DNA of 64,000 bases, taken from assembly GCA_965287045.1 (NCBI GenBank), contig OZ336870.1:150660001-150724000 (forward strand). The letters run 5' to 3'. Shown here in pieces: positions 1 through 64,000 of the stretch. Below the pieces are notes generated by a model. It was not told where the DNA came from. It ran no database searches and worked only from the letters and a program-made list of their open reading frames with translations. The number at the start of each line of letters is the position of its first letter. Position 1 is the stretch's first letter. Both the position numbers and the translations under genes were made by a program. This DNA comes from Carcharhinus amblyrhynchos (taxonomy: Eukaryota).

Positions 1-1530
1 AAATGTTAGAATCTGTCATCAAGGAGGAAATAGCAAGGCATCTTGAGGGGAATTGCTTGATAGAGCAGACGCAGCACGGTTTCGTTAAGGGGAAGTCGTG
101 TCTGACAAATTTATTGGAGTTCTATGAGGATGTGTCTAGGGCGGTGGATAGAGGAGAGCCGGTGGATGTGGTCTTTCTTGATTTTCAGAAGGCGTTTGAC
201 AAGGTACCTCACAAGAGGTTATTGCAGAAGGTAAGGGGGCATGGAGTTGGGGGTAGGGTGTTAGCGTGGATAGAGGATTGGTTGTCAAATAGGAGGCAGA
301 GAGTGGGGGTTAATGGGTGCTATTCGGATTGGCGGTTGGTGACTAGTGGAGTGCCCCAGGGGTCGGTGCTGGGGCCTCAGCTATTTCCCATTTATATAGA
401 TGATCTGGAGGAGGGAACCGAGTGCATGGTGTCGAAATTTGCTGATGACACCAAGATTGGTGGAACAGCAAATTGCGCAGAGGGTATGGAGAGTCTGCAG
501 AAGGATCTAGATAGGCTGGGTGAATGGGCCAGGAACTGGCAAATGGAATTTAATGTTGGCAAGTGCGAGGTGGTCCACTTTGGTAGGAATAATGGTAGGA
601 AGGACTATTTCTTACGTGGCAAAAAACTGCAGCAGGCGACGGTGCAGAGGGACCTCGGGGTCCTTGTGCATGAGTCGCAAAAACCCAGCCTGCAGGTGCA
701 GCAGGTGGTCAGGAAGGCTAATGGGATGCTGGCCTTCATAGCGAGGGGGATTGAATATAAAAGTAGGGAGGTCTTGCTGCAGCTGTATAGGGCATTGGTG
801 AGGCCGCAGCTGGAGTACTGTGTGCAGTTTTGGTCGCCGTACTTACGCAAGGATATTTTGGCCTTGGAGGGAGTGCAGAGGAGGTTTACTAGGCTGATAC
901 CGGAGTTGAGGGGGTTGAGCTATGAGGAGAGGCTGAATAAAATTGACACTATTTCTTCCCTGAATCTGACTGAGTAGGGTTCCATTCGTAGACATGCAGG
1001 GTAGAATAGGTGTAGGGTGATGCGGCGGCGTGGGCTCGTTGGGCCGAAGGGCCTGTTTCCCGTGCTGGGTTGTTCTTTGTTCTTTGTTCTAAACTAGGCT
1101 TGTACTCGTTAGAGTTTAGAAGAATGAGGGGAGATCTCATTGAGACATATAAGATGATGAATGGGATGGATAGGATAGAGGTGGAGAGACTCTTCCCGCT
1201 CAGAAAGGACAGTAGGACTAGGGGGCACAGTCTCAAGATAAAGGGGGAGTGGTTTAGAACGGAGTTGAGGAGGAACTTCTTCACTCAAAGGGTGGTGAAT
1301 CTCTGGAATTCTCTGCCCGTTGAGGTGGTGGAGGCTGCCTCGCTAAATATTTTTAAGATGCGGGTTGATGGGTTTTTGATAAGCGAGGGGATTAAGGGTT
1401 ATGGGGAGAGGGCGGGAATGTGGAACTGAGCCATGACAGATCAGCCATGATCTTATTGAATGGCGGGGCAGGCTCGAAGGGCTAGATGGCCTACTCCTGC
1501 TCCTATTTCTTATGTTCTTATGTTCTTATG
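1..1530 (+). mobile_element. Young CR1-clade LINE (family A), 3' part of ORF2 reverse transcriptase plus 3' tail, interrupted at ~941-1090
   Basis: ORFs 3..977 and 1070..1429 contain QHGF..GKSCLTNL, DFQKAFDKVPH, SGVPQGSVLGP and KFADDTK, then ELRRNFFTQRVVNLWNSLP. Ends in (TTCTTATG)n at ~1506-1530. Confidence 0.97.
941..1090 (+). mobile_element. 5'-truncated ~150-bp retro-insertion (3' end of the family seen at 59425-59757) inside the CR1 RT
   Basis: Splits the GAATAAACTAGG seen intact in other copies. Ends in GGGCCGAAGGGCCTGTTTCCCGTGCTGGGTTG(TTCTTTG)n. Similar to 59596-59757. Confidence 0.85.
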
Positions 1531-1534
1531 TGTC

Positions 1535-1900
1535 TTCAACATGTCAGTGGTCTGCTCAATTAAGGAGTGTGTTGCGGATTGAGTTACATTGTACCTCTCT
1601 TCTGATGTGCTCTGTGGCTATTCAGTGAGTGTCATCAGCCATGCCATTTGAGGGTTGTCTTTGTCACTGATGATCCAACCAAGAATATGCTGAGGGCCCT
1701 TGAAGATCTGTGGTGCCTACAAGTGACTCAACATGTAAGTATCATGTGAGCTTCCAAGGTACCTTGAAAAGACCTACATAATCTGCTTTCAGTGATCACA
1801 GAGCAGCTGCATGTTGAGAGATTAGAAACTCTTATAATTGATGATTAAAGATTAAAAAGGAGCGGGCCAATGATCTGTTTGACAGACAGTTTCATCATAC
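1535..1900 (-). mobile_element. Degenerate PIF/Harbinger DDE transposase fragment
   Basis: Minus-strand translation INYKSF*SLNMQLLCDH*KQIM*VFSRYLGSSHD resembles the HARBI1-type motif N.KGFHS.N.Q.VCD...A.YPGS.HD. Confidence 0.75.
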
Positions 1901-2687
1901 GTCTAAATGGGGACAAGGAGAACCCACAAGTCGAGAACTGAATAGTGAGGGTGATGTCTCAGCTGATCGAAGAGTCATTAGGGAGTATGGTAGGAGCCGA
2001 ATGTCCACTTGGAGGAAATAATGTTCCAGGAGACACGAAATGGATGAAGGGAATGCTTGTGATGCAATATTCTGTTCGATCAATGGCTTTATGGTGAATT
2101 TAATTGGGGAAGTGGAAATATCCAAATAGACCAAGGAAGAATGAGAGTGGTGCCTCACTTGGGGAGCCCATGCCCCTGGCTGTCTGAAACTTTGTTTCCA
2201 TATTTAGAAGAGGGATTCCAGGAAAGTCCCTGAACAGCTACACCCTTGATGAGGAAACTACTTTGCCCAATTTTAAATCAAAAGGAACCTACACTGCTGC
2301 TAGTAAAATACAAAAGATCATGTATCAACTGATTCAAAAACAGCTTCTTCCCTGCTTCCATTGGACTTTTGAATAGACCTACTTCATATTAAGTTAATCT
2401 TTCTCTACATCCTAGCCAAGACTGTAATATTACGTTCTATACGCTTTCTGCCTTTCTGAATTTGGAGGCAGACGAGGAAGGTGGTGATTGATTCCACTGA
2501 CCATTTCATCACAAATTTAACTGTGGAGCAGAAAAGTTTCCAAATTGGCACTGTGGGATTGAGGGTGATGCCTCACCCAGATGAAAAGCCACCTGGAGAT
2601 AAAGCAAAAACTGAACCTCCGCCTGAGGGCAGCATATGGGTCAGATTGGGTGAAGATCCTCTCCTAAAAGAAAGGAGAGTCAATTTT

Positions 2688-3570
2688 CAAGTTTGCTGAT
2701 GACACCACCATAGTGGGTCAGATCTCAAACAACGATGAGACAGACTACAGGAAAGAGATAGAAAATCTGATGAATTTGTGCAATGACAATAATCTCTCCC
2801 TCAATGTCAACAGAATGAAGGAGATAGTCATCAACTTCAGGAAACATAATGGAGGATGTGCCCCTGTCTAAATCAATGGAGATGAAGTGGAAATGGTCGA
2901 GAGCTCCATGTTTCCAGGTGTCCAGATCACCAAATACCTGTCCTGGACCCCCCATGCCAACATAATAGTTAAGAAAGCTCATCAATGCTTCTACTTTCTC
3001 AGGAGGTGAAGAATATTCAGCATGTCAGCTACGACTCTCATCAACCTTTACAACTGCACCATAGAAAGCATCCTTTCTGGTTGTATCACAGCTTGGTATA
3101 GCTCCTGCTCTGTCTAAGACCACAAGAAACTGCACAGGATCATGAACAATGCCCAGTCCATCATGTAAACCAGCCTCCCATCCATTGACTCTGCTTGTAC
3201 TTCCCACTGCCTCAGAAAAGCAGCCAGCACAATCAAGGACTCCAAGGACCCGGACATTCTCTCTTCCCACTTCCATTGGGAAAAAAATACAAAAGATCAT
3301 GTACCAACTGATTCAAAAACAGCTTCTTCCCTGTTTCCATCAGACTTTTGAATAGACCTACTTCATATTAAGTTAATCTTTCTCTACACCCTAGCCAAGA
3401 CATTGCTATGTTAATCTTTCTCTACACCCTAGCCAGAATGTAACATTACATTCTGTACTATCTCCTTTCCTTCCCTATGTATTGTTTGCTTTGTCTATAT
3501 AGTGCAAGGAACAATACTTTTCACTGTCTACTAATACATGTGACAATAATAAATCAAATTGAATCAAAGT
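2688..3570 (+). mobile_element. Decayed Rex1/Babar (L2-group) LINE 3' end
   Basis: FADDTTIVGQISNNDETDYRKEI..., NLSLNVNRMKEIVINFRK, then a 3' UTR ending AATAAATCAAATTGAATCAAA. Confidence 0.85.
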
Positions 3571-4230
3571 CTACCCCGAAGAAGATGAAGCGTGCAGAAA
3601 TCCTGGGGAAAATTGCAGGAAAACTCTGATAAACCAAGTGTAACCAAACAAGCTATAGACCTTGACCAGGACTATGTTGATGAAGGATTCACTGAAAGCA
3701 AAATGTTGGAATCAGAATCCCTACAGGAGGTGGAAATCAGAGCAAAATCCACAAATCTCCTAGAGCAATCAGACCTTTAAAAGTCCTTGGGTTTGAACCA
3801 GCCAATTCATTGGTCAAACAGGTAGGCAAATAATTAAGCCTGATTGGAACAGCTCATTGGGTTTCCCAATCTGCAGTGGCAGGCACATGTGGAAGGTCCT
3901 GTAGGAAATTCATGCTGGCATAAAACCAATTTCTGGACTCCCGCCAAATTCTCTGCCCACTTGCTTTTGAACCCCCTCCAATGGCATGGGAGAACTCCGC
4001 CTCACATTTAAGAAACCATATACTTGCATTCTAGGCAGTACAGTGAAGGTTTATTGATCTCTTGGATGAGAAAGTTGTCCTATGAGAGGCTAAGTAAATT
4101 GGGTCAAAATATTCTCTGGAGTTTCAAAGAAGGAAAGATTATCTCACTGAAATATTTATGATTATGAGGGATCTTGACAGGGTAGATACTGAGATGTTGT
4201 TTCTTCTAACTGCAGAATCTAGAACAAGGG

Positions 4231-6590
4231 TACTTACGTGGCGAAAAACTGCAGCAGGCAACGGTGCAGAGGGACCTTGGGGTCCTTGTGCATGAGTCGC
4301 AAAAACCTAGCCTGCAGGTGCAGCAGGTGGTCAGGAAGGCGAATGGGATGCTGGCCTTCATAGCAAGGGGGATTGATTGTGGACAAGTCCCCAGGACTGG
4401 ATGGAATGCATCCGAGGGTTCTGAAAGAAATGGCGGAGGTTATAGTGGATGCATTGGTGGTTATTTTCCAGACGTCGCTGGATTCCGGGGAAGTGCCGGA
4501 AGATTGGAAAACGGCTAATGTTACGCCGTTGTTTGAGAAGGGTGCCAGGCAAAAGGCGGGGAATTATAGGCCGGTTAGTTTAACGTCTGTGGTAGGTAAA
4601 ATGTTAGAATCCGTCATTAAGGAGGAAATTGCGAGGCACCTTGAAGGCAATTGCTTGATAGAGCAGACGCAGCACGGTTTCATTAAAGGGAAGTCGTGTC
4701 TGACAAATTTACTGGAGTTCTATGAGGATGTGTCTAGGGCGGTCGATAGAGGAGAGCCGGTGGATGTGGTCTTTCTGGATTTTCAGAAGGCGTTTGACAA
4801 GGTACCTCATAAGAGGTTATTGCAGAAGGTCAGGGGACTTGGAGTTGGGGGTAGGGTGTTAGCGTGGATAGAGGATTGGTTGTCAAATAGGAGGCAGAGA
4901 GTGGGGGTCAACGGGTGCTATTCGGATTGGCGGATGGTGACTAGTGGAGTGCCCCAGGGGTCGGTGCTGGGGCCTCAGCTTTTTACCATTTATATAGATG
5001 ATCTGGAGGAGGGAACCGAGTGTAGGGTGTCGAAATTTGCGGATGACACCAAGATTGGGGGAAGGGCAAATTGTGCGGAGGGTGTGGAGAGTCTGCAGAA
5101 GGATCTAGATAGGCTGGGCGAATGGGCCAGGAAATGGCAAATGGAATTTAATGTTGGCAAGTGTGAGGTGGTCCACTTTGGTAGGAAGAATGGTAGGAAG
5201 GACTATTACTTACGGGGCGAAAAACTGCAGCAGGCGACGGTGCAGAGGGACCTCGGGGTCCTTGCGCATGAGTCGCAAAAACCCAGCTTGCAGGTGCAGC
5301 AGGTGGTCAGGAAGGCGAATGGGATGCTGGCCTTCATAGCGAGGGGGATTGAATATAAAAGTAGGGAGGTCTTGCTGCAGCTGTATAGGGCATTGGTGAG
5401 GCCGCAGCTGGAGTACTGTGTGCAGTTTTGGGCGCCGCACCTGCGCAAGGATATTTTGGCCTTGGAGGGAGTGCAGAGGAGGTTTACTAGGCTGATACCG
5501 GAGTTGAGGGGGTTGAACTATGAGGAGAGGCTGAATAAACTAGGCTTGTACTCGTTGGAGTTTAGAAGAATGAGGGGAGATCTCATTGAGATGTATAAGA
5601 TGATGAATGGGATGGATAGGATAGAGGTGGAGAGACTCTTCCCACTGAAAAAAGACAGTAGGACTAGGGGGCACAGCCTCAAGATAAAGGGGGGGCGTTT
5701 TAGAACGGAGTTGAGGAGGAACTTCTTCACTCAAAGGGTGGTGAATCTCTGGAATTCTCTACCCATTGAAGTGGTGGAGGCTGCCTTGCTAAATATTTTC
5801 AAGAAGCGGGTTGATGGGTTTTGATAAGAGAGGGGATTAAGGGTTATGGGGAGAGGGCCAGAAAGTGGAACTGAGCCACGACAGATCAGCCATGATCTTA
5901 TTGAATGGCGGGGCAGGCTCGAAGGGCCAGATGGCCTACTCCTGCTCCTATTTCTTATGTTCTTATGAATATAAAAGTAGGGAGGTCTTGCTGCAGCTGT
6001 ATAGGGCATTGGTGAGGCCGCAGCTGGAGTACTGTGTGCAGTTTTGGTCGCCGTACTTACGCAAGGATATTTTGGCCTTGGAGGGAGTGCAGAGGAGGTT
6101 TACTAGGCTGATACCGGAGTTGAGGGGGTTGAGCTATGAGGAGAGGCTGAATAAACTAGGCTTGTACTCGTTAGAGTTTAGAAGAATGAGGGGAGATCTC
6201 ATTGAGACATATAAGATGATGAATGGGATGGATAGGATAGAGGTGGAGTGACTCTTCCCGCTCAGAAAGGACAGTAGGACTAGGGGGCACAGCCTCAAGA
6301 TAAAGGGGGGGCAGTTTAGAACGGAGTTGAGGAGGAACTTCTTCACTCAAAGGGTGGTGAATCTCTGGAATTCTCTGCCCCTTGAAGTGGTGGAGGCTGC
6401 CTCGCTAAATATTTTTAAGACACGGGTTGATGGGTTTTTGATAAGTGAGGGGTTAAGGGTTATGGGGAGAGGGCAGGAATGTGGAACTGAGCCACGACAG
6501 ATCAGCCATGATCTTATTGAATGGCGGGGCAGGCTCGAAGGGCTAGATGGCCTACTCCTGCTCCTATTTCTTATGTTCTTATGTTCTTAT
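4231..6590 (+). mobile_element. 5'-truncated CR1 family A copy (4231-4375 joined to 5966-6590) hosting a nested copy
   Basis: Sequence stops at ...GCAAGGGGGATTG and resumes at AATATAAAAGTAGGG, contiguous in other copies. Tail (TTCTTATG)n at ~6567-6590. Confidence 0.9.
4373..5824 (+). CDS. CR1 ORF2 reverse transcriptase domain (483 aa open frame) of the nested 5'-truncated copy 4376-5967
   Basis: Uninterrupted non-LTR RT motifs from KSPGLDG to FADD to LWNSLP. A 1-nt deletion at ~5820 gives an early stop relative to sister copies. No endonuclease domain. Confidence 0.92.
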   Translation: MIVDKSPGLDGMHPRVLKEMAEVIVDALVVIFQTSLDSGEVPEDWKTANVTPLFEKGARQKAGNYRPVSLTSVVGKMLESVIKEEIARHLEGNCLIEQTQHGFIKGKSCLTNLLEFYEDVSRAVDRGEPVDVVFLDFQKAFDKVPHKRLLQKVRGLGVGGRVLAWIEDWLSNRRQRVGVNGCYSDWRMVTSGVPQGSVLGPQLFTIYIDDLEEGTECRVSKFADDTKIGGRANCAEGVESLQKDLDRLGEWARKWQMEFNVGKCEVVHFGRKNGRKDYYLRGEKLQQATVQRDLGVLAHESQKPSLQVQQVVRKANGMLAFIARGIEYKSREVLLQLYRALVRPQLEYCVQFWAPHLRKDILALEGVQRRFTRLIPELRGLNYEERLNKLGLYSLEFRRMRGDLIEMYKMMNGMDRIEVERLFPLKKDSRTRGHSLKIKGGRFRTELRRNFFTQRVVNLWNSLPIEVVEAALLNIFKKRVDGF

Positions 6591-6663
6591 GATAGGGGGC
6601 CATCATTTAGGACTGGGATGAGGAGAAATGTGAGGTGAAGCTCACATGATTCTATGATTCTAT

Positions 6664-6886
6664 GTGATTTGGAAGATCTACCGTAGTAGGAAAGTATACA
6701 GTAAATGGTAGAGCCCTTAGAAATACTAGTATACAGAGGGATCTAGGCATGCAGATCCACTGTTCCCTGAAGGTGGCAACTTAGGTGGGCAAGGTGGTCA
6801 AGAAGGCATCTGGCATGCTGGCCTTCATTGGGCAGGGCATTGTGTACAGGAATTGGAAAATCATGTGGCAGCTATATAAGACTTTG
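6664..6886 (+). mobile_element. CR1 internal fragment, inverted near-copy of 7705-7927
   Basis: The reverse complement aligns closely with part of the minus-strand CR1, including the GCAACTTAGGTGGGC in-frame stop. Confidence 0.8.
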
Positions 6887-7146
6887 GCTGTGAATGTTTA
6901 AAATTCTTTATCTTAGGGGGTTGTGAATCTTTGGATTACAAGTTCAATGACAATACCACTACACCATTGCCTACCCTGCAATATATCATTATTGAATATA
7001 TTCAAGGTTGAAATAAATTTTTGTTGTCTCAGGGAATCGAAGGATATGGGGGCTGATAAGTGAGAAGGCGGATCCGAAGTTGGCAATCAGTCACATTGAA
7101 TGACAGAGCAGGCTCAATATTTGTATGATCTACCGTTCCTATTTCA

Positions 7147-9020
7147 AAGAACAAAGAACAGTACTGCACAGGAACAGGCCCTTCAGCCCACCAAGTCTGT
7201 ACCGACACAGATGCCTCTCTAATCTAATACTTTCTTGCCGCTACATTGTTCATATCCCTCTATTCCCTGCCTATCATGTATCTATCCAGATGCCTCTTGA
7301 ATTTTGTTATAGAATCTGCTTCCACCGTCTCCTCTGGCAGCACATTCCAGACAACCACCAACCACTGTGTGAAAAACCTGTCCCTTACATCTCTTTTACA
7401 CTTTCCCCCTCTTACTTTCAACTTATACCTCCACATAACTGACTTTTCGATGCTGGGAAAAAGACTTTTTCTATGCACTCTATCTAAGCCCGTCATAATT
7501 TTATAAATCTCTATCAGGTCCCCTCTCATTCCCCAATGCTCCAATGGGAACAATCTGAGTTTATACAACCTTTCTTCATAGTCCATATTTTCTAAATTAG
7601 GCAACATCCTGATAAATCTCTTCTGCATCTTTTCAGATGCATCAACATCCGTCCGGTATTGTGGCGACCGGAATTGTACACAATACTCAAAATGCAGCCT
7701 AATCAAAGTCTTATACAGTTGCAACATGATTTTCAAATTCCTGTACTCAGTGCCCCGACTGATGAAGGCCAGCATGCCATATGCCTTCTTGACCACCTTG
7801 CCCACCTAAGTTGCCACCTTCAGGGAACAGTGGATCTGCATGTCTAGATCCCTCTGTATGCTAATATTTCTAAGGGCTGTACCATTTACTGTATACTTTC
7901 CTTCTGCAGTAGACCTTCCAAATCGCATTACCTCAGATTTGTCCAGATTAAATTCCATCTGCCATCTTTTGGCCCAGGTTTTCAGCGGATTTATATCCTG
8001 CTGTATCCTCTGACAATCCTCTTCCCTATCCACTACTCCCCCAGTTTTTGTAGCATTTGCACATTTACTAATCAGACCAAATCATTTCTTCCAAATCATT
8101 TATACATGTTAAAAACAAGAGGCCCCAGCACTGATCCTTTGGAACACCGCTTGTCACAGACCTCCAGTTCGAAAAGTAACCTTCCACTGCTACATTCTGC
8201 TTTCTATGCTCAAGCTAGTTTTGTATCCCTCTTACCAGCTCACCTTGGATCCCATATCACTTCACCTTCTGTATCAGCCTGTCATGACGAATCTTACCAA
8301 CGGCTTTACTAAAGCCCATGTATACAACATCCACTGTCGTCCCCTGGTCAATTTTTCTTGTCACTTCCTCAAAGAATTCTATCAAGTTTGTGAGACACGA
8401 TCTCCCCTTCACAAAACCATGCTGCCCTTCGCTATTAAGCCTGTTCTCTTCCAGATTTGAATACATCCTGTCCCCAAAAATCTTCTCCAATAATTTGCTC
8501 ACCACTGATGTGAGACTCACAGGCCTGTACTTTCCCAGATTGTCTTGTCTGCCCTTCTTAAACAGAGGAACGATGTTAGCTATTCTCCAATCCTCTGGCG
8601 CTTCGCTCGTGGCTAAAGAAGATACAAAGATTTTGGTTAAGGCCTCAGCAATTTCTTCCCTTGCCTCTCTCAGTATTCTGGGGTAGATTGTATCTGGCCC
8701 TGGGCACTTGTCCACCTTAATGTTTTTCAAAATCTTCAATACCTCTTTCCTTTTTATTTCAATATGTTCTAGAATGTCAACATCCTCCTTTTTACCATCC
8801 ATCCATCACATCCTTCTCCTTTGTGAATACTGATGCAAAATACTCATTAAGGACCTCACCCACTTCATCTGGCTCCACACACAAATTCCCTCCACTGTCT
8901 TTAATTGGATTGACCGTTTCCTTAGTTACCCTCTTCCTCCTTATATATGCATAAAAAGCCTTGGGATTCTCCTTGATCCTGCCTGCCAAGGACATTTCGT
9001 GGCTCCTTTTTTTTCTTGAG
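7147..9020 (-). mobile_element. CR1 LINE family B, disrupted ORF2 with tail
   Basis: Minus ORFs 8257..8802, 7806..8033 and 7260..7805 carry RT motifs. The tail reads AAAGAACAAAGAACA on plus at 7147. Confidence 0.93.
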
Positions 9021-9029
9021 GTATCAGTT

Positions 9030-9720
9030 ATAAGAACATAATTTCTTATGTTCATAACTGACCCCTTATTCTGAGTCTGTGACTTGTGTTCTAGATTCCC
9101 CAGACAGGGACAACATTTTTTCATCATCTACCCTGTTAAGCCCCTTAAGAACTTTATGTGTTCCCATTAGATCATCTCTCATTCTTCTAAGCTTCAGGGA
9201 TATATGTCTAGGCTACTTTATCATTGTAGGACAATTCCCTAATCCCAGAAACCAGTTTTGCAAACTTTCATTCCCTCTTGGGCGACTGTATCCTTCTTTT
9301 GGTAAGGTAACCAAAACTGTATGCACTATGCCATGGGTGTCCTCCCTGTATAATTGTAGTAACACAGTGAAAAGTCTGACAACACCAGGTTTTATTTTGT
9401 AGTAAGACTTCTTTACTCTTGTACTTAATTGTTGTACCTACTTGTTAACTTTATGTGATTCATGTGTTTCCTTTGAATGCAAACATTGTCTCCCTATTCA
9501 AAAATGTTCAGCTTTTTTAATTTCTTTACCAAAATGGATAACTTCACACATTATATTCCATCTGCGATGTTCTTGCCCACTCACCCAGCCTATCTATATG
9601 TATCTGCAGCTTCTTTGTGTCCTCCTCAATACTTACAGTACTTTCTCAACTAATTTTGTATTGTCAGCAAACTTGGATGCATTACATTCAGTTCCCTTTT
9701 CCACATCATTGTAGATTGTA
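9030..9720 (-). mobile_element. Old decayed CR1 fragments
   Basis: Degenerate KFADNTK and CR1 C-terminal motifs on minus. Confidence 0.65.
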
Positions 9721-10412
9721 AACTCACAGTTCCAACTAGTTTTCCTATGAATCCCATCTTTCTCAGCCTTTGGGGCCTGTTATATATTCTTCACTAACAA
9801 TTCATTTACTAATTATCTTAGTATTTTGTCTATTAATTGTGAATAATTGCCTTTATACAATCCAGTTGGTAGCTTAAGCTCATGTTTAATGCAACTGATG
9901 CTAATTGATGTATAATACATTTCCTGATTCAATTACTTCTAGCCCATTAACCCTTTTGTTGGACTGGGCAGTTTTTTCCTTCAGATTGTGTTTTTATGTC
10001 TTTATATAGTAGTTTTTTCTCTGAGGAAGAAGTATCATGCCTTCTATCCCTCTTCCATCATCACAACCGATGCCTTCTTGTTTGCTTTCTGTATGTCATG
10101 AACATGATTGGAGGAAAGCTCTTGATTTGAAATACTACACAGAGGCGAGATGCTAAGAGATTCTGATACATTCTTGATTCTCTTTACAGACTCACTGCTT
10201 TATGTGTCTTTAATACTTTTTCCTTTATATTTTGTCAGTTTTCTGTCTTATGTTTTAATTCTACTAATCACTTGTAGCCACATATTTCAATTCCACACCC
10301 ACAGCAAGGCATGCATTACTTACCTTGGGCATAATCCTTGTGTTTTTAATATTGGTTTTGATAATCAAATATTTAAACATTTTATTAAATGCAGGTGTTT
10401 TCAGTGACACAT

Positions 10413-10560
10413 AATCATAGAATTCCGATAGTGCAGAAGGGGTCATTCGGCCCGTTGAATCTACACTGACTGACAGAGTATCTTTTACCAGGCCTTCTAC
10501 CACACTATCCCGGTAACCACACACATATACCATAGCTAATCCATCTAATATACACATCTA
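10413..10560 (-). mobile_element. HE1-like SINE 3' part
   Basis: Reverse complement of the SINE 3' region with the CTATGATT tail. Confidence 0.7.
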
Positions 10561-10633
10561 ATTTATAAATGGAATGTATTTTTATTATTAATTTTGTTTT
10601 ATGTAATTAAGTTTTAATATTTTTCAAAAGTTA

Positions 10634-11165
10634 TGTAAGGATATTTTGGCCCTGGAGGGAGTGCAGAGGAGGTTTACTAGGCTGATACCGGAGTTGAGGG
10701 GGTTGAGCTATGAGGAGAGACTGAATAAACTAGGCTTGTACTCGCTAGAGTTTAGAAGAATGAGGGGAGATCTCATTGAGACGTATAAGATGATGAATGG
10801 GATGGATAGGATAGAGGTGGAGAGACTCTTCCCGCTCAAAAAAGACAGTAGGACTAGGGGGCACAGCCTCAAGATAAAGGGGAGGAGGTTTAGAACGGAG
10901 TTGAGGAGGAACTTCTTCACTCAAAGGGTGGTGAATCTCTGGAATTCTCTGCCCGTTGAAGTGGTGGAGGCTGCCTCGCTAAATATTTTTAAGAAGCGGG
11001 TTGATGGGTTTTTGATAAGAGAGGGGATTAAGGGTTATGGGGAGAGGGCGGGAAAGTGGAACTGAGCCACAACAGATCAGCCATGATCTTATTGAATGGC
11101 GGGGCAGGCTCGAAGGGCTAGATGGCCTACTCCTGCTCCTATTTCTTATGTTCTTATGTTCTTAT
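10634..11165 (+). mobile_element. 5'-truncated CR1 family A
   Basis: ORF 10646..11065 nearly identical to other family A C-termini. (TTCTTATG)n tail. Confidence 0.95.
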
Positions 11166-11959: not shown

Positions 11960-12157
11960 CTGTAAGGTGTAGTGGTGGCAGAAGGCTACTGTTACTGGAG
12001 GTATAAGAAACATAAGAACATAAGAAATTTTGAGTGAAGAAGTTCCTCCTCAACTCCGTTCTAAACCGCCCCCCTTTTATCTTTAGGCTGTGCCTAAATA
12101 TTTAGGTATTCCAGAGGCTCAGGAAAATGATCTGGAGACACTGGTTTGAATCTATCA

Positions 12158-12342
12158 TTGTAAGAAGTCTCACAACACCAGGTTAAAGTCCAACAGGTTC
12201 ATTTGATAGTAAACTCACAAGCTTTTGGGGTTTGCCCCTTCATCAGGTGAATGGAGAGTTCTGGCCCCAGACAGAGTTAACGTGATGTTGTGAGACTTCT
12301 TACTGTGTTTACCCCAGTCCAACGCTGGCATCTCCACATCAC
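12158..12342. repeat. Penelope/retrozyme-type repeat, inverted plus direct pieces, with a degenerate hammerhead on minus (~12213-12250)
   Basis: Similar to the 174-bp unit at 36021. Minus strand reads CAC-CTGATGA-A-GGGG-CAAA-CCCC-AAAA-GCTT-GTG. Confidence 0.8.
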
Positions 12343-13194
12343 TGAATCTATCATAGCAGCTGGTAGAATTTATATTCAGTTAATAAATTTGTAATAGTAA
12401 CGAATGAATCGTTGTTGTAAATACTGATCTAATTCACTAATGCTCTTTATGAAAAGAAATCTGTTGTCCTTAGTTGATCTGACCTACATGTGACTCCAGC
12501 TCAACAGCAATGTAGTTTGATGCTTCAGTGCTCTCTGAAATGACCTCCAACCCTTGCTTACATGGTTCCCACAAACCTCTTTCAACCACTCCTAACCTGT
12601 ACTCAAATCTCCCCGCAACCTCCTCCCCAATACACCCCAACCCTCCATCCCAACCTCCTCCAACTTCCACTCTAATCTTCCCTGACCTGCACTTAAACTT
12701 CCCCTCAGCCCTCCCCACCCAACCACTCCTCTAACCTCCCCCAACCCCTCCAAACCTCGCCACAGCACCCTTCCCCCCCACAAGCCCCTCACCCCCACAC
12801 ACAGACAAATCATCAAATTAGTTCTAAAATAGCAGGATTTCACTTATCATTTCTCACGGAAGACTCTGCTGACAGTTGCTGGGTTGCTGTTGACCTTCAA
12901 GCAGCTTTGGTTTTCTGGCGAACTTTTCAGAAAAACAATTGGACCCACAAAGCTGTCTGAAAGTTGAAAGCAGCAAAACAGCAGCTCAGTGAAATTGACA
13001 CCAATACTAATGGAATTGCTTAAAAAAGAATCGTAACTTCCCCGTTTTGATTTTTTAAAACCCGGTGTGTGGTTTTGGCTGCCCAGGCTTGATAATGAAA
13101 ACCTCCATTTAAAACACAGAGTGTGAGCTCCCCCCCCAGCCCTGCACCCCGGTGTTTAGCACCATCTACACCTCCCTCTTGAGGGGCCTGTTGA

Positions 13195-27649: not shown

Positions 27650-29155
27650 GAACAAGCCATACCATGTTTGTCAACATTCCAGCTGATCTTTCGTCATGGA
27701 AAGTCTCTTACCCATTATTTTCAAGACTGTCTTCACCTTATCTCCATTGGAGATCTTCAGTCTAGGACCTCTAATTTCATGGTTCCATCAACCCTGCACA
27801 GATTGCTTCTATTTCTTTCCCAAGATCCACAAACAGGACTGACTTAATAGACATTGACCTAACTTACACCTTTCTATTTCCGCAGAACTTTTTCCGACTT
27901 TAATGCATTTTTTTCTCTCTGTCCTGTCCTTTTCCAGCTACGTATTCTTCTGATACCCTATTCTGCTTGAACAATTTGCAGTTTGCTAAGCCTAATCATC
28001 CCCGTTTCACCATGAACTTTCAATCCTTCTGCATATCCAATCCCACCAGGTTGATCTGGGGCTCTCTATTTCTTCCTTGAATAGAGGTGTAACCAGTTCC
28101 CATCCACCACCACCACCACTCTCCTCCATTTGGCTGAATGTTGTCCCATTGAACAACTTCTCTTTTGACTCCAGTCATTTCCTTCAAATAAAAAGTATAA
28201 CTATGGATATCTATATGGGTTGTTTCTATGCCTACCTTTTCATAGGACATATGAAAATTGCTTTGTTTCAGTCCTACTCAGGTCACTCCCTCACCTCTTT
28301 TTCTGGCATGCTGATGACTGTCTCAGTGCAATTTCCTGCTCTTGCTCCAGATTAGAAAATTTCATCAGTTTTGATTCCAATTTCCACCCATCCGTCACCC
28401 TTGCATCATTCATCCCTGACTTTTCCTTTCCTGAACCTTTTTATCTTCATCTCTGGGTAAAGGCTAACGACTAATATCCACTATACGCCCAGTTGAAGGA
28501 GGTGCTGTATCACCTGAAATGAATGTTTGGCCCTCGAATAGTGGGGAGGGAGTAAGTAAATGGGCAGGTATTGTACCTTCTACAACTGCATGGGAAGGTG
28601 CCATGGGAAGGGGATGAAGGATTCAGGGCAATGGAGAAATGGAACAGGGGATCACAGAGGGGGTGGTCCCTGTGGAATGCAGACAGGGGGTAAGGGAAAA
28701 TGTATTTAGTAATGGCATCATGCTAGAGTTGGCAGAAATGGTGAAGGGTGATGATCCCTCGAATGCAGATGCTGTGAAAGGTTAGAGGGATCCTATCATG
28801 GATCAGGAATGGAGGGGAATGGGTGAGGACAGAGTGCAGCAGATGGGTCGGATACGGTTTGTTATATCTGATTTTGCTATTCATAAGAACAATATTTTGT
28901 TTCTTGGCATATTACCAATTCCTTTCGCCTTGCACCATCATTTCTTTTGTTTCTTAATCAATTCTATCCTTCATCCTGTCACAGGATAAACTTAAATAAA
29001 ACCTGCTACAGGTCTAATCTTTTACAATTCTGATGAAAGGTGATCAAGCTGAAATGAACACTTTATTTCCCTTTGCTGTACTGCTTGACCTTCAGAAAAA
29101 TTCCTACATTTTCTGCTTATATTTCATGTTTCTAACATTTTGCTTTTTTGTACTA
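27650..29155 (+). mobile_element. Decayed Penelope-like element (RT fragment, probably inverted internal piece ~28490-28855, 3' terminus)
   Basis: NNFSFDSSHFLQIKSITMDIYMGCFYAYLF...FFWHADDC matches the PLE RT pattern FLQ..GVAMG..MGPSYA...RYIDD. Hammerhead-like CTGATGA...GAAA at ~29030-29055. Confidence 0.8.
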
Positions 29156-35612: not shown

Positions 35613-36078
35613 AATTGCTCAATATTCTCTGACATCTAGAAGAATAAGAAGTGACGTTGAAATGTTAGACACGGTTGACATGGTGGATGCTGAGAGGCTG
35701 TTTCCCATGTCTGGTGTGTCTAGAATGACAGGGCATATTCTTAGAATGAATGAGTTGGTCATTTTGGATTGAGATAAAGGAAAATTGTTTCTCTACCCTG
35801 GAAGCCTGTGGATTCTCACTTGGTGAATATATTCAAGACTGGAATGGATACATATTTGCACACTAGAGGGATCAAGGTATGTAACATGCTGACTATAATA
35901 TTCAAAAATGAAATACTTGAATTTAATTTTTTGTATTGCTATTATACAGTAAATAAAATTTGGGTACTTCTCCCTAGTGTACTTGTTTAAATCTATCTCA
36001 AAAAAGCAACCCATGATGATGCATCTCCACATCATGACTACCATCGACACCGCAAACTGCCAGCTCCAAGCTCCCACT

Positions 36079-36113
36079 CACCTGACGAAGGGGCAGCGCT
36101 CCGAAAGTTAGTG
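36079..36113 (+). ncRNA. Minimal type I hammerhead ribozyme motif, copy 1
   Basis: CAC | CTGACGA | A | GGGGC-AGC-GCTCC | GAAA | GTTA | GTG. Confidence 0.75.
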
Positions 36114-36252
36114 GCTTTTGCTACCAAATAAACCTGTTGGACTTTAACCTGGTGTTGTGAGACTTCTTACTGTGTTAACCCCAGTCCAACACTGGCATCT
36201 CCACATCGTGATTATCATCGACACTGCAAACTGTCGGCTCCAAACTCCCACT

Positions 36253-36287
36253 CACCTGATGAAGGGGCAGCACTCTGAAAGCTAGTG
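36253..36287 (+). ncRNA. Minimal type I hammerhead ribozyme motif, copy 2
   Basis: CAC | CTGATGA | A | GGGGC-AGC-ACTCT | GAAA | GCTA | GTG. Stem II is weakened by CpG-type transitions. Confidence 0.7.
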
Positions 36288-37899
36288 GCTTTTCCTACCA
36301 AATAAACCTGTTGGACTTTAACCTGGTGTTGTAAGATTTCTTACTGTGACAATATAATCCGTGTATAACATAATGTGCAGTTTTCATCTATGTGGTTTGT
36401 GTGAATGTGATTGTCAATTGATGCTGCCTTTGGAGGCAATTTTGCAATATCGATATATATCCACTAAGAATCCTGTTTCTATTACCAGAAATAGAATTAC
36501 CTTAGACTTAATTACAGCTACCAAAAATGAAAGATATTTACCTTGATTTCTCTGAGTTGGGTATGAACTCGAGAGTAGGTGTTAAAAGACAAAGTTCCAG
36601 GGTGATGGCATGTAATTCAGTGGGCTATTCCCTTAACTGATTAACATGCTATATGACCTGGCAATTTTTTTTTCAGAATGGCACAAAGTCCACATTAATC
36701 CTGGTAGGCTATGAACTTGGATAGTTAGACTTAATTTCATGGAATTTTTTTTTTAAATTAAGTACAATGGTGGGAGGCTCTGGTAGCACCCTTCCTGCTG
36801 GCTGGAATGGCGGGAACACTCAGCCAAGTTCATGCTTGGAACTTATTAATTATGCACCTGTGAGTATCAGGCTGAATTACTGGATGGGCTGAGAACTGAT
36901 TGGTCTGGCTGCCATCAGCCAGTGGACTCAAAGGTCCCAGTGTCACATTTAAAGTCCAGTCCAACACGGTCTCCAGTTCACCCATCTCCAACATCTCAGG
37001 AAGCCAGAAGCATAAGTCGAGCAGCATCAAGATGAAAGCTGCTACACAGTTCAGCCACCAGGCTTTCTCAGCTTTGATCTGAAGAGTCTGGATGCAGAGC
37101 ATCCAGACCCTTCTACCCAAGGGACTGTTCCAAGAAGCACAGCAACCTTATGTCTATACGAGGGAGGTAATTGACAAGGAGCTCAGCACAGTTGGGAACC
37201 AGGCCTGACTGAAGACATTGTGATTTTGTACTTTGGGATCCTTTTATGTCAAGCTTGAGCCATTCTCCCACTCAGTGATAGTGTATCACTCTGAGATTAC
37301 CATTCATGTGAGCCTCAGATGAACTCGTCTCTGTACCCTTGAGCGTTGTTAGGGAGATATGTTTTAATATTTATTAGAAGTGTATGATGGAACCATTTCT
37401 AACCTCCCGAACAGGCACAGGAGTGTGGCAACTCGGGGATTTCACAGTAACTTCATTGCAGTCTGAATGTAAGTCTATTTGAAACTAATAAATAAACTTT
37501 TAACTTTTCTTCCTCAAGGGATACCAATGAGTGAAGACAGTTCATCAGCACTGACACTCTAGTGGCATGTGTGTCTCCACAGTGCTAGCACCCAAATCTA
37601 AGACATGCACACTTGTATGAGATCCCTGACCAGGCCCTCATCTTAGTTGTGGCAAAGTTAGCATCATTAGATGGTGGTGAAAGTGTCAAGGTTTGTCTCG
37701 GATCGCTCTTGTTCCCCAGTGGTCTATAAGTTTACAGAATGTGCACATTAACAGGGCACCTCTGACCAAAGCTGTGATAATAACCTAGAGAATCACAAGG
37801 CCAGAATGTGTAAGCCTGAATACAGGCTCGTTCTCTCAATGATTGCATGGATATCTCCGAGATGTCAGAGAATACCTTTGAGGGCTAGGGGTGATGTAG

Positions 37900-49200: not shown

Positions 49201-49454
49201 CCTCCATCACCTGACCCTTAAATATTGCATCATTATGTCTACATAACGATTGAAAAACACTGAGTCTTCCAAAGAACTCTGTAGAGGTCTGTCAGGAATG
49301 CAAATAAGATTCAGAAATTGGGTTATGCCTTGAAATACTGGGATGCAGCTTGTTTCCATGTTGGTAATATGTCCAGCTTCCCTCTCTTTCAAATATTTGC
49401 ATCTGAAGATACATGGCTAAGAGAAGGTCTGGGAAAGGGAAGCTAACGGAAAAT

Positions 49455-49532
49455 AAATCGGTTGGACTTAAACCTGGTGTTGTCAGACTTCTTACTGTGT
49501 TTACCCCGGTCCAATGCCGGCATCTCCACATC
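49455..49532 (+). repeat. Fragment of the 174-bp hammerhead repeat family
   Basis: GTTGGACTTAAACCTGGTGTTGTCAGACTTCTTACTGTG...GGCATCTCCACATCA spans the unit junction. Confidence 0.85.
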
Positions 49533-50043
49533 AAGGGAAGGTCTCCCAGGCCTGATGTTCTTTTTTTCCTGCTCTAAGAATCTGCCAGTATGTGACATGC
49601 CCTGTGAAAGCAGGTTCATTGGTCTGCCAGCCAGTGCTTATGGAACCCACATGCAATGTAAATAAAGCCTTAAAATTTTTTATATATGTTCAAAAGCTGA
49701 TGGAGCACTATGGATACATGCCTGAGGATTACTGTTGAGTGGCACCTCATCTTGATGGCAGCCAGTGCCATATTTTGTTTCCCACCTACTAACAGGCACC
49801 TGAGTTGTGCCCCTAATTGTGTGATCCCTCAGCCCCTGATTTAATTAGAGTATCTTCTCTTGGCCCTGCATTGCTCACAGATTTTCAGGGCCATAAAATG
49901 TCTTTCATCCAGCATTCCTTTTGTCACACTTCAGATGTTGCACTTTGTTACAGATGTAAAACAATCTTAAAAAGAAAGAATGCCAAGGATTTCATCTGGC
50001 TTTTTCTGACCAAAAGCCTGAAATTTACAAGCAATTTACTGAC

Positions 50044-55854: not shown

Positions 55855-56509
55855 TATGATTCTAATTATGACTTCTATCTGAAGATATGCCCTGTGATTA
55901 GTCAGGTGTAATGATGCTACCCCTCTTACAGATGTCCTATTGTGTGCTTCAGTCTACAGTATTTTGCACCATCTCATAACAGTACTTGATTTGTATCTGC
56001 ACAGTTGTGACATGATTGAAACCACTTTCTCTAAGAATTTGGTAGAAATTGGCGTGGAGCTAATTGTCATAGTGAAACCAGTATTTCACTATGTCTAGTG
56101 GGTCTGGACTTTATTCTCCAAGCCTACTAGTGTCTCCTCACCCTGCTGGGAGTGGTTCCCTCCAGCAGTGTTTACAACTGCTCCCCCCTAGCAATGAACA
56201 GGTACCTGACCTCGCTGGATGGAAGAAAGGCCATTGAGGCCACTTAGAAGGCTGGGAGTAAGGGGATGTGCCCCTTGGACAGTGCCAGCCTGGCATTGCC
56301 AGCCTAGCACTCTGGCACTGCCCAAGGGGCAAAATGGCACTGCCCACCAGGCACCTTGGCACTGCACACTGGGCAGTTTTAAAAGGGCGAGGCCTACTGG
56401 GGCAATTGGTAGGGGGACCCACTGCTACTCTGCAAGAGGATCTATGATGGAGTGATGGTGTCAGGGCTATCGGGGCAGCCTATCAGGGCTGGCCATCGGG
56501 GTGGAGATG

Positions 56510-59500
56510 TGAGGAATTTAGATGTGGTGGCAGTGACGGAGACTTGGTTAAAGGAAGGGCAGGACTGGCAGCTGAATATTCTTGGGTATAAGTGTTTTAG
56601 GTGTGACAGAGGAGGGTTGAAGAGAGGTGGTGGGGTGGCGTTGTTAGTTAAGGAGCACATCACAGCAGTGCAGAGGGAGGACAATATGGAGGAGTTGGGG
56701 ATTGAGTTGCTGTGGGTGGAATTGAGGAATAGAAAGGAAGAAATTGCGATGCTAGGGGTATACTGTAGGCCACCCAACAGCCCAAGGGCAGTGGAGGAAG
56801 GTATTTGTAGAGACATTTTAGATAGGTGCAGAAAGAATAGGGTGGTTGTAGTGGGTGACTTTAATCTTCCTGGAGTGGATTGGAAGGTGCCTAGAGCTGG
56901 GGGTACTGATGGGGAGGAATTTGTAAAATGTGTATTGGAAGGGTCCTTGGAGCAGTACGTAACTAGCCCGACTAGGGAGGGGGCTATCCTGGATTTAGTG
57001 TTGGGTAATGAGCCGGGGCAGGTAGTTGAGGTTGCAGTAGGCGAACATGTGGCTAACAGTGACCACAAGTCTGTCTACTTTAGGATAAAAATGGAAAGGG
57101 ATGAGTGCCGTCTGAAGGGGAGGGTGCTGAACTGGGGGAAGGCGAGCTATAGCTGGATTAGGAAGGAGCTGAATGATGCTGATTGGGAGGGGTTGTTAGC
57201 GGGCAAGTCCACAGTTGGCAAGTGGGAGGCTTTCAAGGGCAGACTGATAATGTGGCAGGAAAGGCATGTGCGGGTAAAGAGGAAGGATGGGAAAGGCAGG
57301 ATTAGAGAGCCGTGGATCACAGGGGATATTGAGGACTTGGTCAGGAAGAAGAGGGCGGCATATATTAGGTCGAAACAACTAGGAACGGAGAGAGCGCTGG
57401 AGGAATATAGAGAGAGTAGGAGGGAGCTTAAAAGGGGAGTTAGAAGGGCAAAAAGGGGGCATGAAATGGCTTTGGCTGTTAGGATTAAGGATAATCCAAA
57501 GGCATTTTACTCTTATATTAGGAACAAGAGAGTGGTTAGAGGGAAAATTGGTCCTCTTAGGGACAAAGGAGGAGAGCTATGCATCGAGTCTGAGGGAATG
57601 GGGGAGATCCTGAATGAATACTTTGCGTCGGTATTCATGAAGGAGAGGGGTTTGGTGTCTTGTAATGTCTTGGACGGAGCTGTAGATCATTTGAGGGAAA
57701 TATCCATTACGAGGGAGGAAGTGTTAGGGTTTTTAGGTACCATAAAAACGGATAAAGCTCCGGGGCCTGATGGTATTTATCCCCGGCTGCTTAGGGAGGT
57801 GAAAGATGAAATTGCTGGGCCTCTGACGCAAATCTTTGTCTCTTCTTTGGACACAAGTGAGGTCCCAGAGGACTGGAGGGTATCTAATGTGGTACCGCTG
57901 TTTAAAAAGGGCAGTAGGGATAACCCTGGTAATTACAGACCAGTGAGTTTGACATCAGTGGTAGGAAAACTGTTGGAAAAAATTCTTAGAGATAGGATGT
58001 ATAAGCATTCGGAGCATTGCGATCTGATTAGGGATACACAACATGGCTTTGTTCAGGGAAGGTCTTGCCTTACGAATCTGGTAGAACTTTTTGAGGAGGT
58101 GACAAAAATGATGGGCGAGCCGTTGATGTCATCTACATGGATTTCAGTAAGGCGTTTGACAAAGTCCGTCATGGTAGGCTGGTAGAAAAAGTTAAGGCAC
58201 ATGGGATACAAGGACAGGTAGCTAGATGGATTGAAAACTGGCTAGGCAGTAGGAGGCAGAGAGTAGTAGTGGAAGGGTCCTTTTCTGGCTGGAGGTCTGT
58301 CACCAGTGGTATGCTGCAGAGCTCAGTACTGGGACATCTTTTTGTAATATATATAAACGACTTAAAAGAGGGCGTACGTGGTGTGATCAGCAAGTTTGCG
58401 GATGACACCAAGATGGCAGGATTGGCGGATACTGAGGAAGATTGTCAGGTGATATGGCAGGATATAGATAGGTTGGTATACTGGGCAGATAGATAGCAGA
58501 TGGAATTTAATCCTGACAAATGCGACGTGATGCATTTTGGAAGGAATAATGCAGGGAGGAGTTACATGATAAAAGGTAGACCAATTAAGAGTATAGAAAT
58601 GCAGAGGGACCTGGGAGTGCAAGTGCACAAGTCTCTGAAGGTGTCATCACAAGTGGAGAAGGTTGCAAAGAAAGCTTATGGAATTCTAGCCTTTATAGGA
58701 AGGGGTATAGAGTATAAGAGCTGTCGTCTAATGCTTCATTTGTACAGAACGTTGGTTAGACCGCATTTGGAGTACTGCGTCCAGTTCTGGTCACCTTACT
58801 ACCGGAAGGACGTGGAGACCCTGGAGAGAGTGCAGAGGAGGTTTACCAGGATGCTGCCTGGTATGGAAGGACTGGGTTATGAGGAAAGATTGGGAAAACT
58901 GGGGCTCTTCTGCTTAGAAAGACGGAGATTAAGGGGGGATCTGATAGAGGTGTATGAAATAATGAAGGGTATAGATAGAATCAACAGTGGCAGGCTTTTC
59001 CCTAGATTGGGGACAACTATCACAGGAGGTCACAATCTAAGATTGAGGGGGGAGAAGTATAATTTGGAATTTAGAGGAAGGTTTTTCACACAGAGGGTCG
59101 TGGGGGTATGGAATGCGCTACCAAGTAAGGAGGTGGAGGCAGGCACGCTGGACTTGTTTAAGGTTTACTTACATAGGCACGAGTGAAACAGGGATGGAGG
59201 GTTATATAAGACGGTTTTAAAAAGGGTCAGAGCCTCGGGTCGATACTGGAAATGTAATAGTACATGTTAATGTTTTTGTCTCTTTTAATCCACAGGTGTC
59301 AGTCCGCCTTGTTGTCAAATGAGGGGCATGCACACGGTGGGTCGTGCGTAGGCTGCTCTTGGATGTTTCGAGAGTAGCCTAGTACTTCGTGTCGACGTGT
59401 GTGCTTAAATCTGGACCAGCAGATGGGCACCACAACAGCTCAGTGACTATCACTGCTGGCTGTGCAGATACATGGATTTGGGCCAGTGTCTGTGGGAGTT

Positions 59501-63884: not shown

Positions 63885-64000
63885 ACACAATAAGGTTAAA
63901 GTTCAACAAGTTTATTTGTAGCAAATGCCACTAGCTTTTGGAACTGGCTGTTCCTTCGTCAGGTGGGTGGGCGTTTGCTACAAATGCACCTGTTGGACTT
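63885..64000 (-). repeat. Hammerhead-repeat family copy with an inverted piece at the window edge
   Basis: Minus strand reads CAC-CTGACGA-A-GGAAC-AGCCA-GTTCC-AAAA-GCTA-GTG. Confidence 0.8.

Follow-up and report, generated by a model that had tools for sequence, protein, structure and literature searches.

Minimal hammerhead ribozymes were previously described in the pLTRs of Penelope-like elements (PLEs), where they are mostly dispersed and weakly active as dimers (PMC4209133). PLE insertions are marked by copies in partial tandem, by truncated copies in inverted orientation (PMC8557442, PMC3846280) and by a tail of 30-40 bp that may be present or absent (PMC8557442, PMC11167929), and this tail corresponds to two internal start sites of the reverse transcriptase (RT) (PMC11167929). 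For an anole PLE, hammerhead cleavage was reported to be dispensable in vitro, and that report found no cut-site reads (PMC11167929). Canonical retrozymes are described as abundant, highly self-paired circular RNAs (PMC7229834, PMC7761336), and the metazoan non-LTR retrozymes carry canonical hammerheads with loop 1-loop 2 contacts and form long arrays (PMC7229834). Recently, Li, Clavereau and Pollet (bioRxiv 10.64898/2026.07.22.740005) found hammerhead repeats in tandem in 20 of the 31 vertebrates they studied, one of them a cartilaginous fish, presented the vertebrate retrozymes as derived from PLE pLTRs, and obtained cleavage in one of nine dimers. Their operational definition of a retrozyme is a tandem called by TRF, in which two consecutive units have complete hammerheads and an MFE below -5 kcal/mol.

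The locus studied here is a dimer of hammerhead units at 36021-36348 of the window, the whole 64,000-nucleotide stretch of Carcharhinus amblyrhynchos DNA that was analysed. By every test run, it is a PLE derivative. It shares with the pLTRs of EN+ Neptune-clade elements the extra nucleotide before stem II and the palindromic 15.2/16.2 (PMC4209133; PMC8557442; PMC3846280), and with those of EN+ PLEs, as these sources describe them, short helices I and III, partial tandems and inverted pLTRs. A target site duplication (TSD) on inverted copies, an optional tail and a pLTR beside the ORF start are likewise common to its family and the described EN+ PLEs. Internal deletions were described in rotifer PLEs, and the dimer would be internally deleted as well. 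Unlike in the EN+ PLEs of these reports, no more than 11 codons of its ORF are left, and the unit that bears the deletion is present as a repeat. Moreover, the ORF of Pen2a_Av and PAc is described as starting within the pLTR, upstream of the tail, whereas the start codon of the dimer follows directly after the tail. Chlamys MRC1 is also a non-autonomous PLE derivative with head-to-tail insertions, but according to PMC8557442 it belongs to another clade, is without canonical hammerheads and is known to be active.

With the vertebrate retrozymes of the 2026 preprint, the dimer has in common two units, a type I hammerhead in each, and homology to PLE termini. Its unit measures 174 nt, compared to a mean consensus of 363 bp in the cartilaginous fish retrozyme. 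The main text of the preprint does not use the words "tail", "deletion" or "start codon", and the junction anatomy is not resolved in it. Set against its definition, the dimer is a TRF hit with two cores and MFEs of -15.6 and -11.2 kcal/mol for 56-nt stretches, obtained with settings other than the authors' rnabob descriptors and TRF parameters. The size range of about 170-400 nt, a GC content below 50%, tandem hammerheads and possible dimeric cleavage are shared with the metazoan non-LTR retrozymes as given in PMC7229834. The dimer differs from canonical retrozymes in its PLE-type minimal core, in being one decayed dimer of ordinary self-pairing, and in being known from sequence alone; as to the loop 1-loop 2 contacts, it has no Rfam hammerhead match and has a bulged extension of helix I. 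A literature search returned nothing on the shark PLE family of the dimer or on its junction, and so abundant a family is probably catalogued in Repbase and Dfam.

Layout and hammerheads of the dimer

The first-pass annotation of this DNA had described two head-to-tail 174-bp units, each with a type I hammerhead of the minimal PLE form and a 3-bp stem I. The tandem was recovered by TRF, which called 36021-36348 with a period of 174, 1.9 copies and 90% match, while direct alignment gave a layout of 154 nt + 20 nt + 154 nt, so that unit 2 is incomplete. A compact type I descriptor, composed after the motif had been seen, matched 2 sites in the window and none in 60 dinucleotide shuffles, by which a chance motif was ruled out. 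A looser hammerhead scan returned 8 rows, 6 of them outside the dimer and non-compact.

All parts of the dimer lie on the plus strand. It begins as a 5'-truncated insertion with the last 13 nt of the PLE tail (36021-36033), which are identical to 36195-36207; the two family pieces with ends at 12328-12341 and 49520-49533 close with these same 13-14 nt. These are followed by codons 1-11 of a PLE ORF with the ATG intact (36034-36066), the hammerhead of unit 1 with helix I arms, core, stem II and GAAA (36067-36117), and the pLTR body up to the first, tail-less 3' end of the family (36118-36174), where contig depth peaks and loose ends lie behind 36172-36174. The 33-nt tail (36175-36207), the first 20 nt of which occur once in the dimer, leads to the second 3' end; loose ends lie behind 36207 in 3 of 4 runs, and the copies ending at 12341 and 49533 stop here. 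In unit 2, the ATG of codons 1-11 (36208-36240) has decayed to GTG, the family majority at 36208 in the run contigs being A. The second hammerhead (36241-36291), with an intact core and a damaged stem II, is followed by a pLTR body (36292-36348) whose last base coincides with the tail-less 3' end of the family (36174+174). No TSD was found at the dimer, the longest common word of its flanks being 4 nt.

The CUGANGA motif is present in both units (36082-88 and 36256-62), followed in each by an extra A, stem II, GAAA (36103-06 and 36277-80), a 2-nt G(U/C) and UA, after which comes helix I with its 3' strand. Cleavage was predicted at 36110^36111 in unit 1 and at 36284^36285 in unit 2. The core is intact in both units. 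Stem II of unit 1 has 5 bp (36090-36102), and that of unit 2 has a G10.1-U11.1 wobble and has lost its top pair. A private change of unit 1 makes the helix III palindrome a wobble, the family majority differing at 36108. Helix I has 4 bp (CAC/GUG plus a wobble) instead of the 3 bp first annotated, and probably extends by another 3 bp beyond a 7-nt bulge, complete in unit 1 and with one mismatch in unit 2. The type I assignment and the PLE-type minimal form were upheld. The Infernal check that had been proposed came back empty: when 4.5 kb and 401 nt were compared with Rfam at E<=10, no hammerhead family matched and the hits were chance snoRNA/lncRNA ones. Across the four hammerhead copies of the window, 43 of the 48 stem II and helix I cells are paired and 2 of the 12 pairs are changed on both sides (n = 4 copies). 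These pairing values are reached by 21-37 of 500 shuffles, and the conservation of pairing is no more than suggestive.

The two units differ at 14 of 154 nt (K2P 0.10); 13 of the differences are transitions and 6 are in CpG context. The divergence is uneven, with 6 of 33 positions in the spacer versus 8 of 121 in the remainder, and the spacer as a long TSD is ruled out because it is the more diverged part. With polarity set from the run-contig majorities, the protein P0002 (see below) and the window copies, 10 of the 12 polarised changes are derived in unit 2 and 2 in unit 1 (p 0.04; p rises to 0.10-0.22 when the tail or two unresolved sites are counted). The copy has decayed neutrally since its insertion, and is probably a poor ribozyme today. 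The earlier suspicion that the locus itself is inactive is probably right.

The Penelope-like parent and its copies

A profile of 45 columns built from the window peptides was searched against candidate proteins and matched 4 of 53. One of these was P0002 (E 0.035), an uncharacterised Heptranchias perlo protein in which the tail-end peptide is followed by Met and a long ORF. Residues 72-82 of P0002 match the window at 36034 (9/11) and 36208 (7/11), and no other place in its six frames reached at least 6/11. The P0002 residues after 82 do not match, which places the deletion junction at about 36066/36067. Residues 66-330 of P0002 matched 3 of 946 longer candidates, the best of which was P0005 (881 aa; 52% identity, E 9e-68), with Met72 of P0002 aligned to Met1 of P0005. 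P0005 has an RVT_1 domain, and a motif search found DKG, YIDD, a CX4CxxC linker at 743 and a two-Cys GIY-YIG-type motif; Pfam GIY-YIG scored on the related P0006 only, below the cut-off. A CX2-5CxxC linker between RT and the GIY-YIG at the C-terminus is given as the mark of Neptune and Nematis PLEs (PMC8557442). The parent element is probably Neptune-type, with a linker that is also common to Nematis. By the indirect route from P0002 to P0005, two proteins of other organisms, the terminal repeat appears contiguous with an ORF for RT and GIY-YIG.

Since the tail and spacer peptides match P0002, which in turn matches P0005, each unit consists of pLTR, hammerhead, 33-nt tail and ORF codons 1-11. 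The first-pass annotation had stated that no Penelope ORF was attached, which needs a small correction for the 11 codons in each unit, and had proposed a non-coding, PLE-mobilised sequence in a shark-like genome, which was upheld. The remainder of the ORF, about 2.6 kb if like that of P0005, would have been deleted from the unit, and no PLE ORF beyond 11 codons was found near the dimer. Protein searches returned no peptide spanning the junction, a weak test in which the window's own junction is also unspanned, and in a search of short proteins for a translated mini-element both candidates were fusions of tail and CR1. Among six hits from a search of protein representatives, P0010, P0011, P0013 and P0014 were set aside as repeat-driven or unrelated, with none of the motifs looked for present; P0012 turned out to be the translation of a solo pLTR, and P0001 consists of part of a PLE with a tail attached. 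In the predicted proteins P0003, P0004, P0008 and P0009, the tail end of the pLTR is fused in frame to a CR1-type LINE, at or just after the ATG. The loose ends behind 36207 in the run contigs start ATG-like among the matches listed, and the element may prefer targets similar to its own start codon.

Inverted pairs make up two of the four other loci of the family in the window. The pair at 12160-12341 consists of a minus copy with a hammerhead (12260-12160) and a plus copy with the tail (12277-12341), and is enclosed by a 12-bp TSD (12147-12158 and 12343-12354). The hammerhead of this minus copy has G12 changed to A and a stem II made entirely of G-C pairs. The second pair, at 63893-64000, has a minus copy with a hammerhead (63977-63893) and a plus arm (63970-64000) cut by the window end. 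This plus arm begins 2-3 nt beyond the predicted cut, as do several opposite-strand joints at 36113-36119, a hint that the 5' end of cleaved RNA may be where inverted arms begin. The other two loci are a 5'-truncated pLTR with tail at 49451-49533 on the plus strand and a 32-nt pLTR stub at 9360-9391 on the minus strand. Weak, fragmented PLE-like RT similarity to P0005 and P0006 was seen at 27717-28719, with one piece on the opposite strand (best E 0.002 for the whole window and 6e-5 for a 2.3-kb stretch); it is probably an older remnant of a different PLE. The window is rich in LINEs, from which, together with the P0002 match, a shark-like host was read. Several young, near-intact CR1/L2-type pieces with ORFs of 486 and 590 aa lie at 1-11165 and 56413-59186, some of them as tandem duplicates with an identity of 95-97%.

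Contigs of 4 of 24 sequencing runs were aligned to 35900-36500 at 80% likeness, giving 101,255, 65,158, 4,343 and 1,265 contigs per run. In X1, the best-matching run, summed contig depth, which stands for an order of magnitude and not a copy number, was 11-32 in the flanks, about 9e6 at 36131-36172, 2.7e6 at 36173-93, 6.4e5 at 36194-214 and 830 at 36215-35. The pLTR core was several 1e5 times deeper than the flanks, and the depth fell stepwise across the two 3' ends. The 3' loose ends cluster at 36171-36174 and 36207, 33-35 nt apart, among the matches listed (24 of 1,278), and part of the signal at 36174 is sequence variation of the tail. Opposite-strand joints were frequent among the matches listed (15 of 273), many of them near 36075 and 36113-36124. 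The bulk of the family is solo, 5'-truncated or inverted pLTR pieces.

The ORF-start spacer reached 0.19% of the core depth in X1 and 1.0% in X14, with the 5' ends of full PLEs included, which limits the 174-nt units to a small minority. Over the flanks, the ORF start was about 700-1,600 times deeper in X1 and 12,000-18,000 times in X14; its relative depth in X14 was about 5 times that in X1. In two runs guessed to be RNA, the spacer was at 0.06-0.09% of the core, a contig depth that says nothing on expression. No piece crossing the 174-nt junction was among the matches listed (32 of ~155,750), a weak result in which the locus itself is also unspanned. The contigs break inside the repeat. In X14, both flanks (35900-36015 and 36348-36482) are present, but the contigs run on into 37 and 26 letters that do not resemble the dimer; in that organism the locus may be empty or in some other state. 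An exact 27-nt pattern had no match in viral and metagenome contigs, and none of 131 pattern matches of P0002 in metagenome contigs was confirmed.

Origin of the dimer

We consider it probable, at roughly 60%, that the dimer goes back to a single old insertion, that of a Neptune-type PLE which was non-autonomous and internally deleted and was copied in trans from an RNA with at least two junctions. In the proposed mechanism, a deletion would have joined ORF codon 11 to the 5' arm of helix I in the hammerhead of the next pLTR, leaving a 174-nt unit of hammerhead, pLTR body, tail and 11 codons. The template RNA with at least two junctions would have been either a read-through transcript from a source locus with units in tandem, or a circle of 174 nt that was read two times over. 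The protein of an autonomous PLE would then have reverse-transcribed it in trans, beginning at the tail-less RT start and halting after about 1.9 units, and the inserted copy would have decayed neutrally.

The deletion junction is present twice, in exact register. Because it occurs twice and the dimer stops at the tail-less end, we infer both the RNA template and the mobilisation in trans: the dimer was probably copied from a multimeric or circular mini-PLE RNA. The end at 36174+174 argues for a PLE origin, as do the 20 nt present once, which are ordinary tail sequence; a simple local duplication is ruled out by these 20 nt and by an end that coincides with an RT start. The PLE anatomy is further supported by the two 3' ends, the opposite-strand joints, the inverted pairs and the 12-bp TSD. 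Against a PLE copy stand the lack of a second locus with the 174-nt junction among the pieces listed and of a TSD at the dimer, and a connection between spacer and full PLE that runs by way of two proteins of other organisms. A circular step for PLE RNAs was reportedly proposed in 2014, and we know of no demonstration of it to date. The twice-repeated junction is compatible with a former 174-nt circle. The excess of derived changes in unit 2 argues against a single circle and fits units of unequal age better.

A bolder reading is that a mobile mini-Neptune family exists in sharks, the 174-nt unit of which spreads via a 174-nt circle. The unit would then keep exactly the cis signals of a PLE, namely the hammerhead, both RT starts and the first 11 codons. 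We regard this as doubtful.

It is unlikely that the dimer belongs to a self-propagating non-LTR retrozyme family, as the first-pass annotation had supposed, with a 174-nt monomer cut by dimeric hammerheads and accumulating as circular RNA. The two cores in tandem, a monomer size and GC content (48%) within the retrozyme ranges, and an ORF-start depth far above the flanks in X1 and X14, which leaves room for a family, speak for it, and the locus would probably count as a retrozyme as defined operationally in bioRxiv 2026.07.22.740005. It is possible to draw a dimeric helix III with 4 pairs, one of them a wobble, together with both crossed helices I, but the energy of the active dimer fold is about 25 kcal/mol higher than that of the ensemble of the 328-nt RNA, in a calculation that had no positive control and ignored tertiary contacts. 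Folded as a circle, the cut-to-cut monomer had an MFE of -32.0 compared to -33.3 ± 4.1 in 200 shuffles (z +0.3, for the decayed genomic copy alone), and the high self-pairing by which retrozyme circles were recognised in 2020 is missing from this decayed copy. Eight of nine Xenopus dimers in the 2026 preprint remained uncleaved. The internally deleted PLE structure, the spacer at about 0.2% of the core with full-PLE 5' ends counted too, and the ordinary circle all speak against a family producing circular RNA.

An origin at the DNA level is about equally improbable. Here, a single mini-PLE insertion would have gained unit 2 later, either when another copy nested itself at the ATG or through unequal recombination. 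The mutational asymmetry of the units and the more diverged spacer agree with such a history, PLEs are described as tending to land beside existing copies (PMC6765202), and the tail-CR1 fusions at or after the ATG in four predicted proteins hint at ATG-like targets. Recombination between the 13-nt repeats, however, would give a complete tail on the right, where the dimer is tail-less, and a nested insertion needs the identical junction in two independent copies.

Least probable of all is a history without a deleted master, in which the PLE RT made two jumps, both leading from a short pLTR RNA, at its 5' end, to an RNA ending near codon 11, with a new junction each time: the joints near 36075 and 36113-36124 among the matches listed indicate that RT switching near the hammerhead is common, and PLE RT is described as beginning inside the RNA (PMC11167929), but independent jumps would rarely give two junctions in exact register.

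Under the preferred reading of a deleted PLE copied in trans, the dimer is the decaying footprint of a known kind of element, and the locus is ordinary, one decayed piece of a PLE family of very high copy number. Every base of its retrozyme-like unit can be assigned to the parent PLE, with pLTR, tail, start codon and deletion junction, and this mapping lends support to the PLE origin that has been proposed for animal retrozymes. Whether PLE RNAs go through circles could be tested in genomes by means of the repeated junction. If a circle-spread mini-Neptune family does exist in sharks, loci like this dimer would be direct footprints of a PLE RT that went round a circle, and would record at base level the birth of a retrozyme from its parent PLE.
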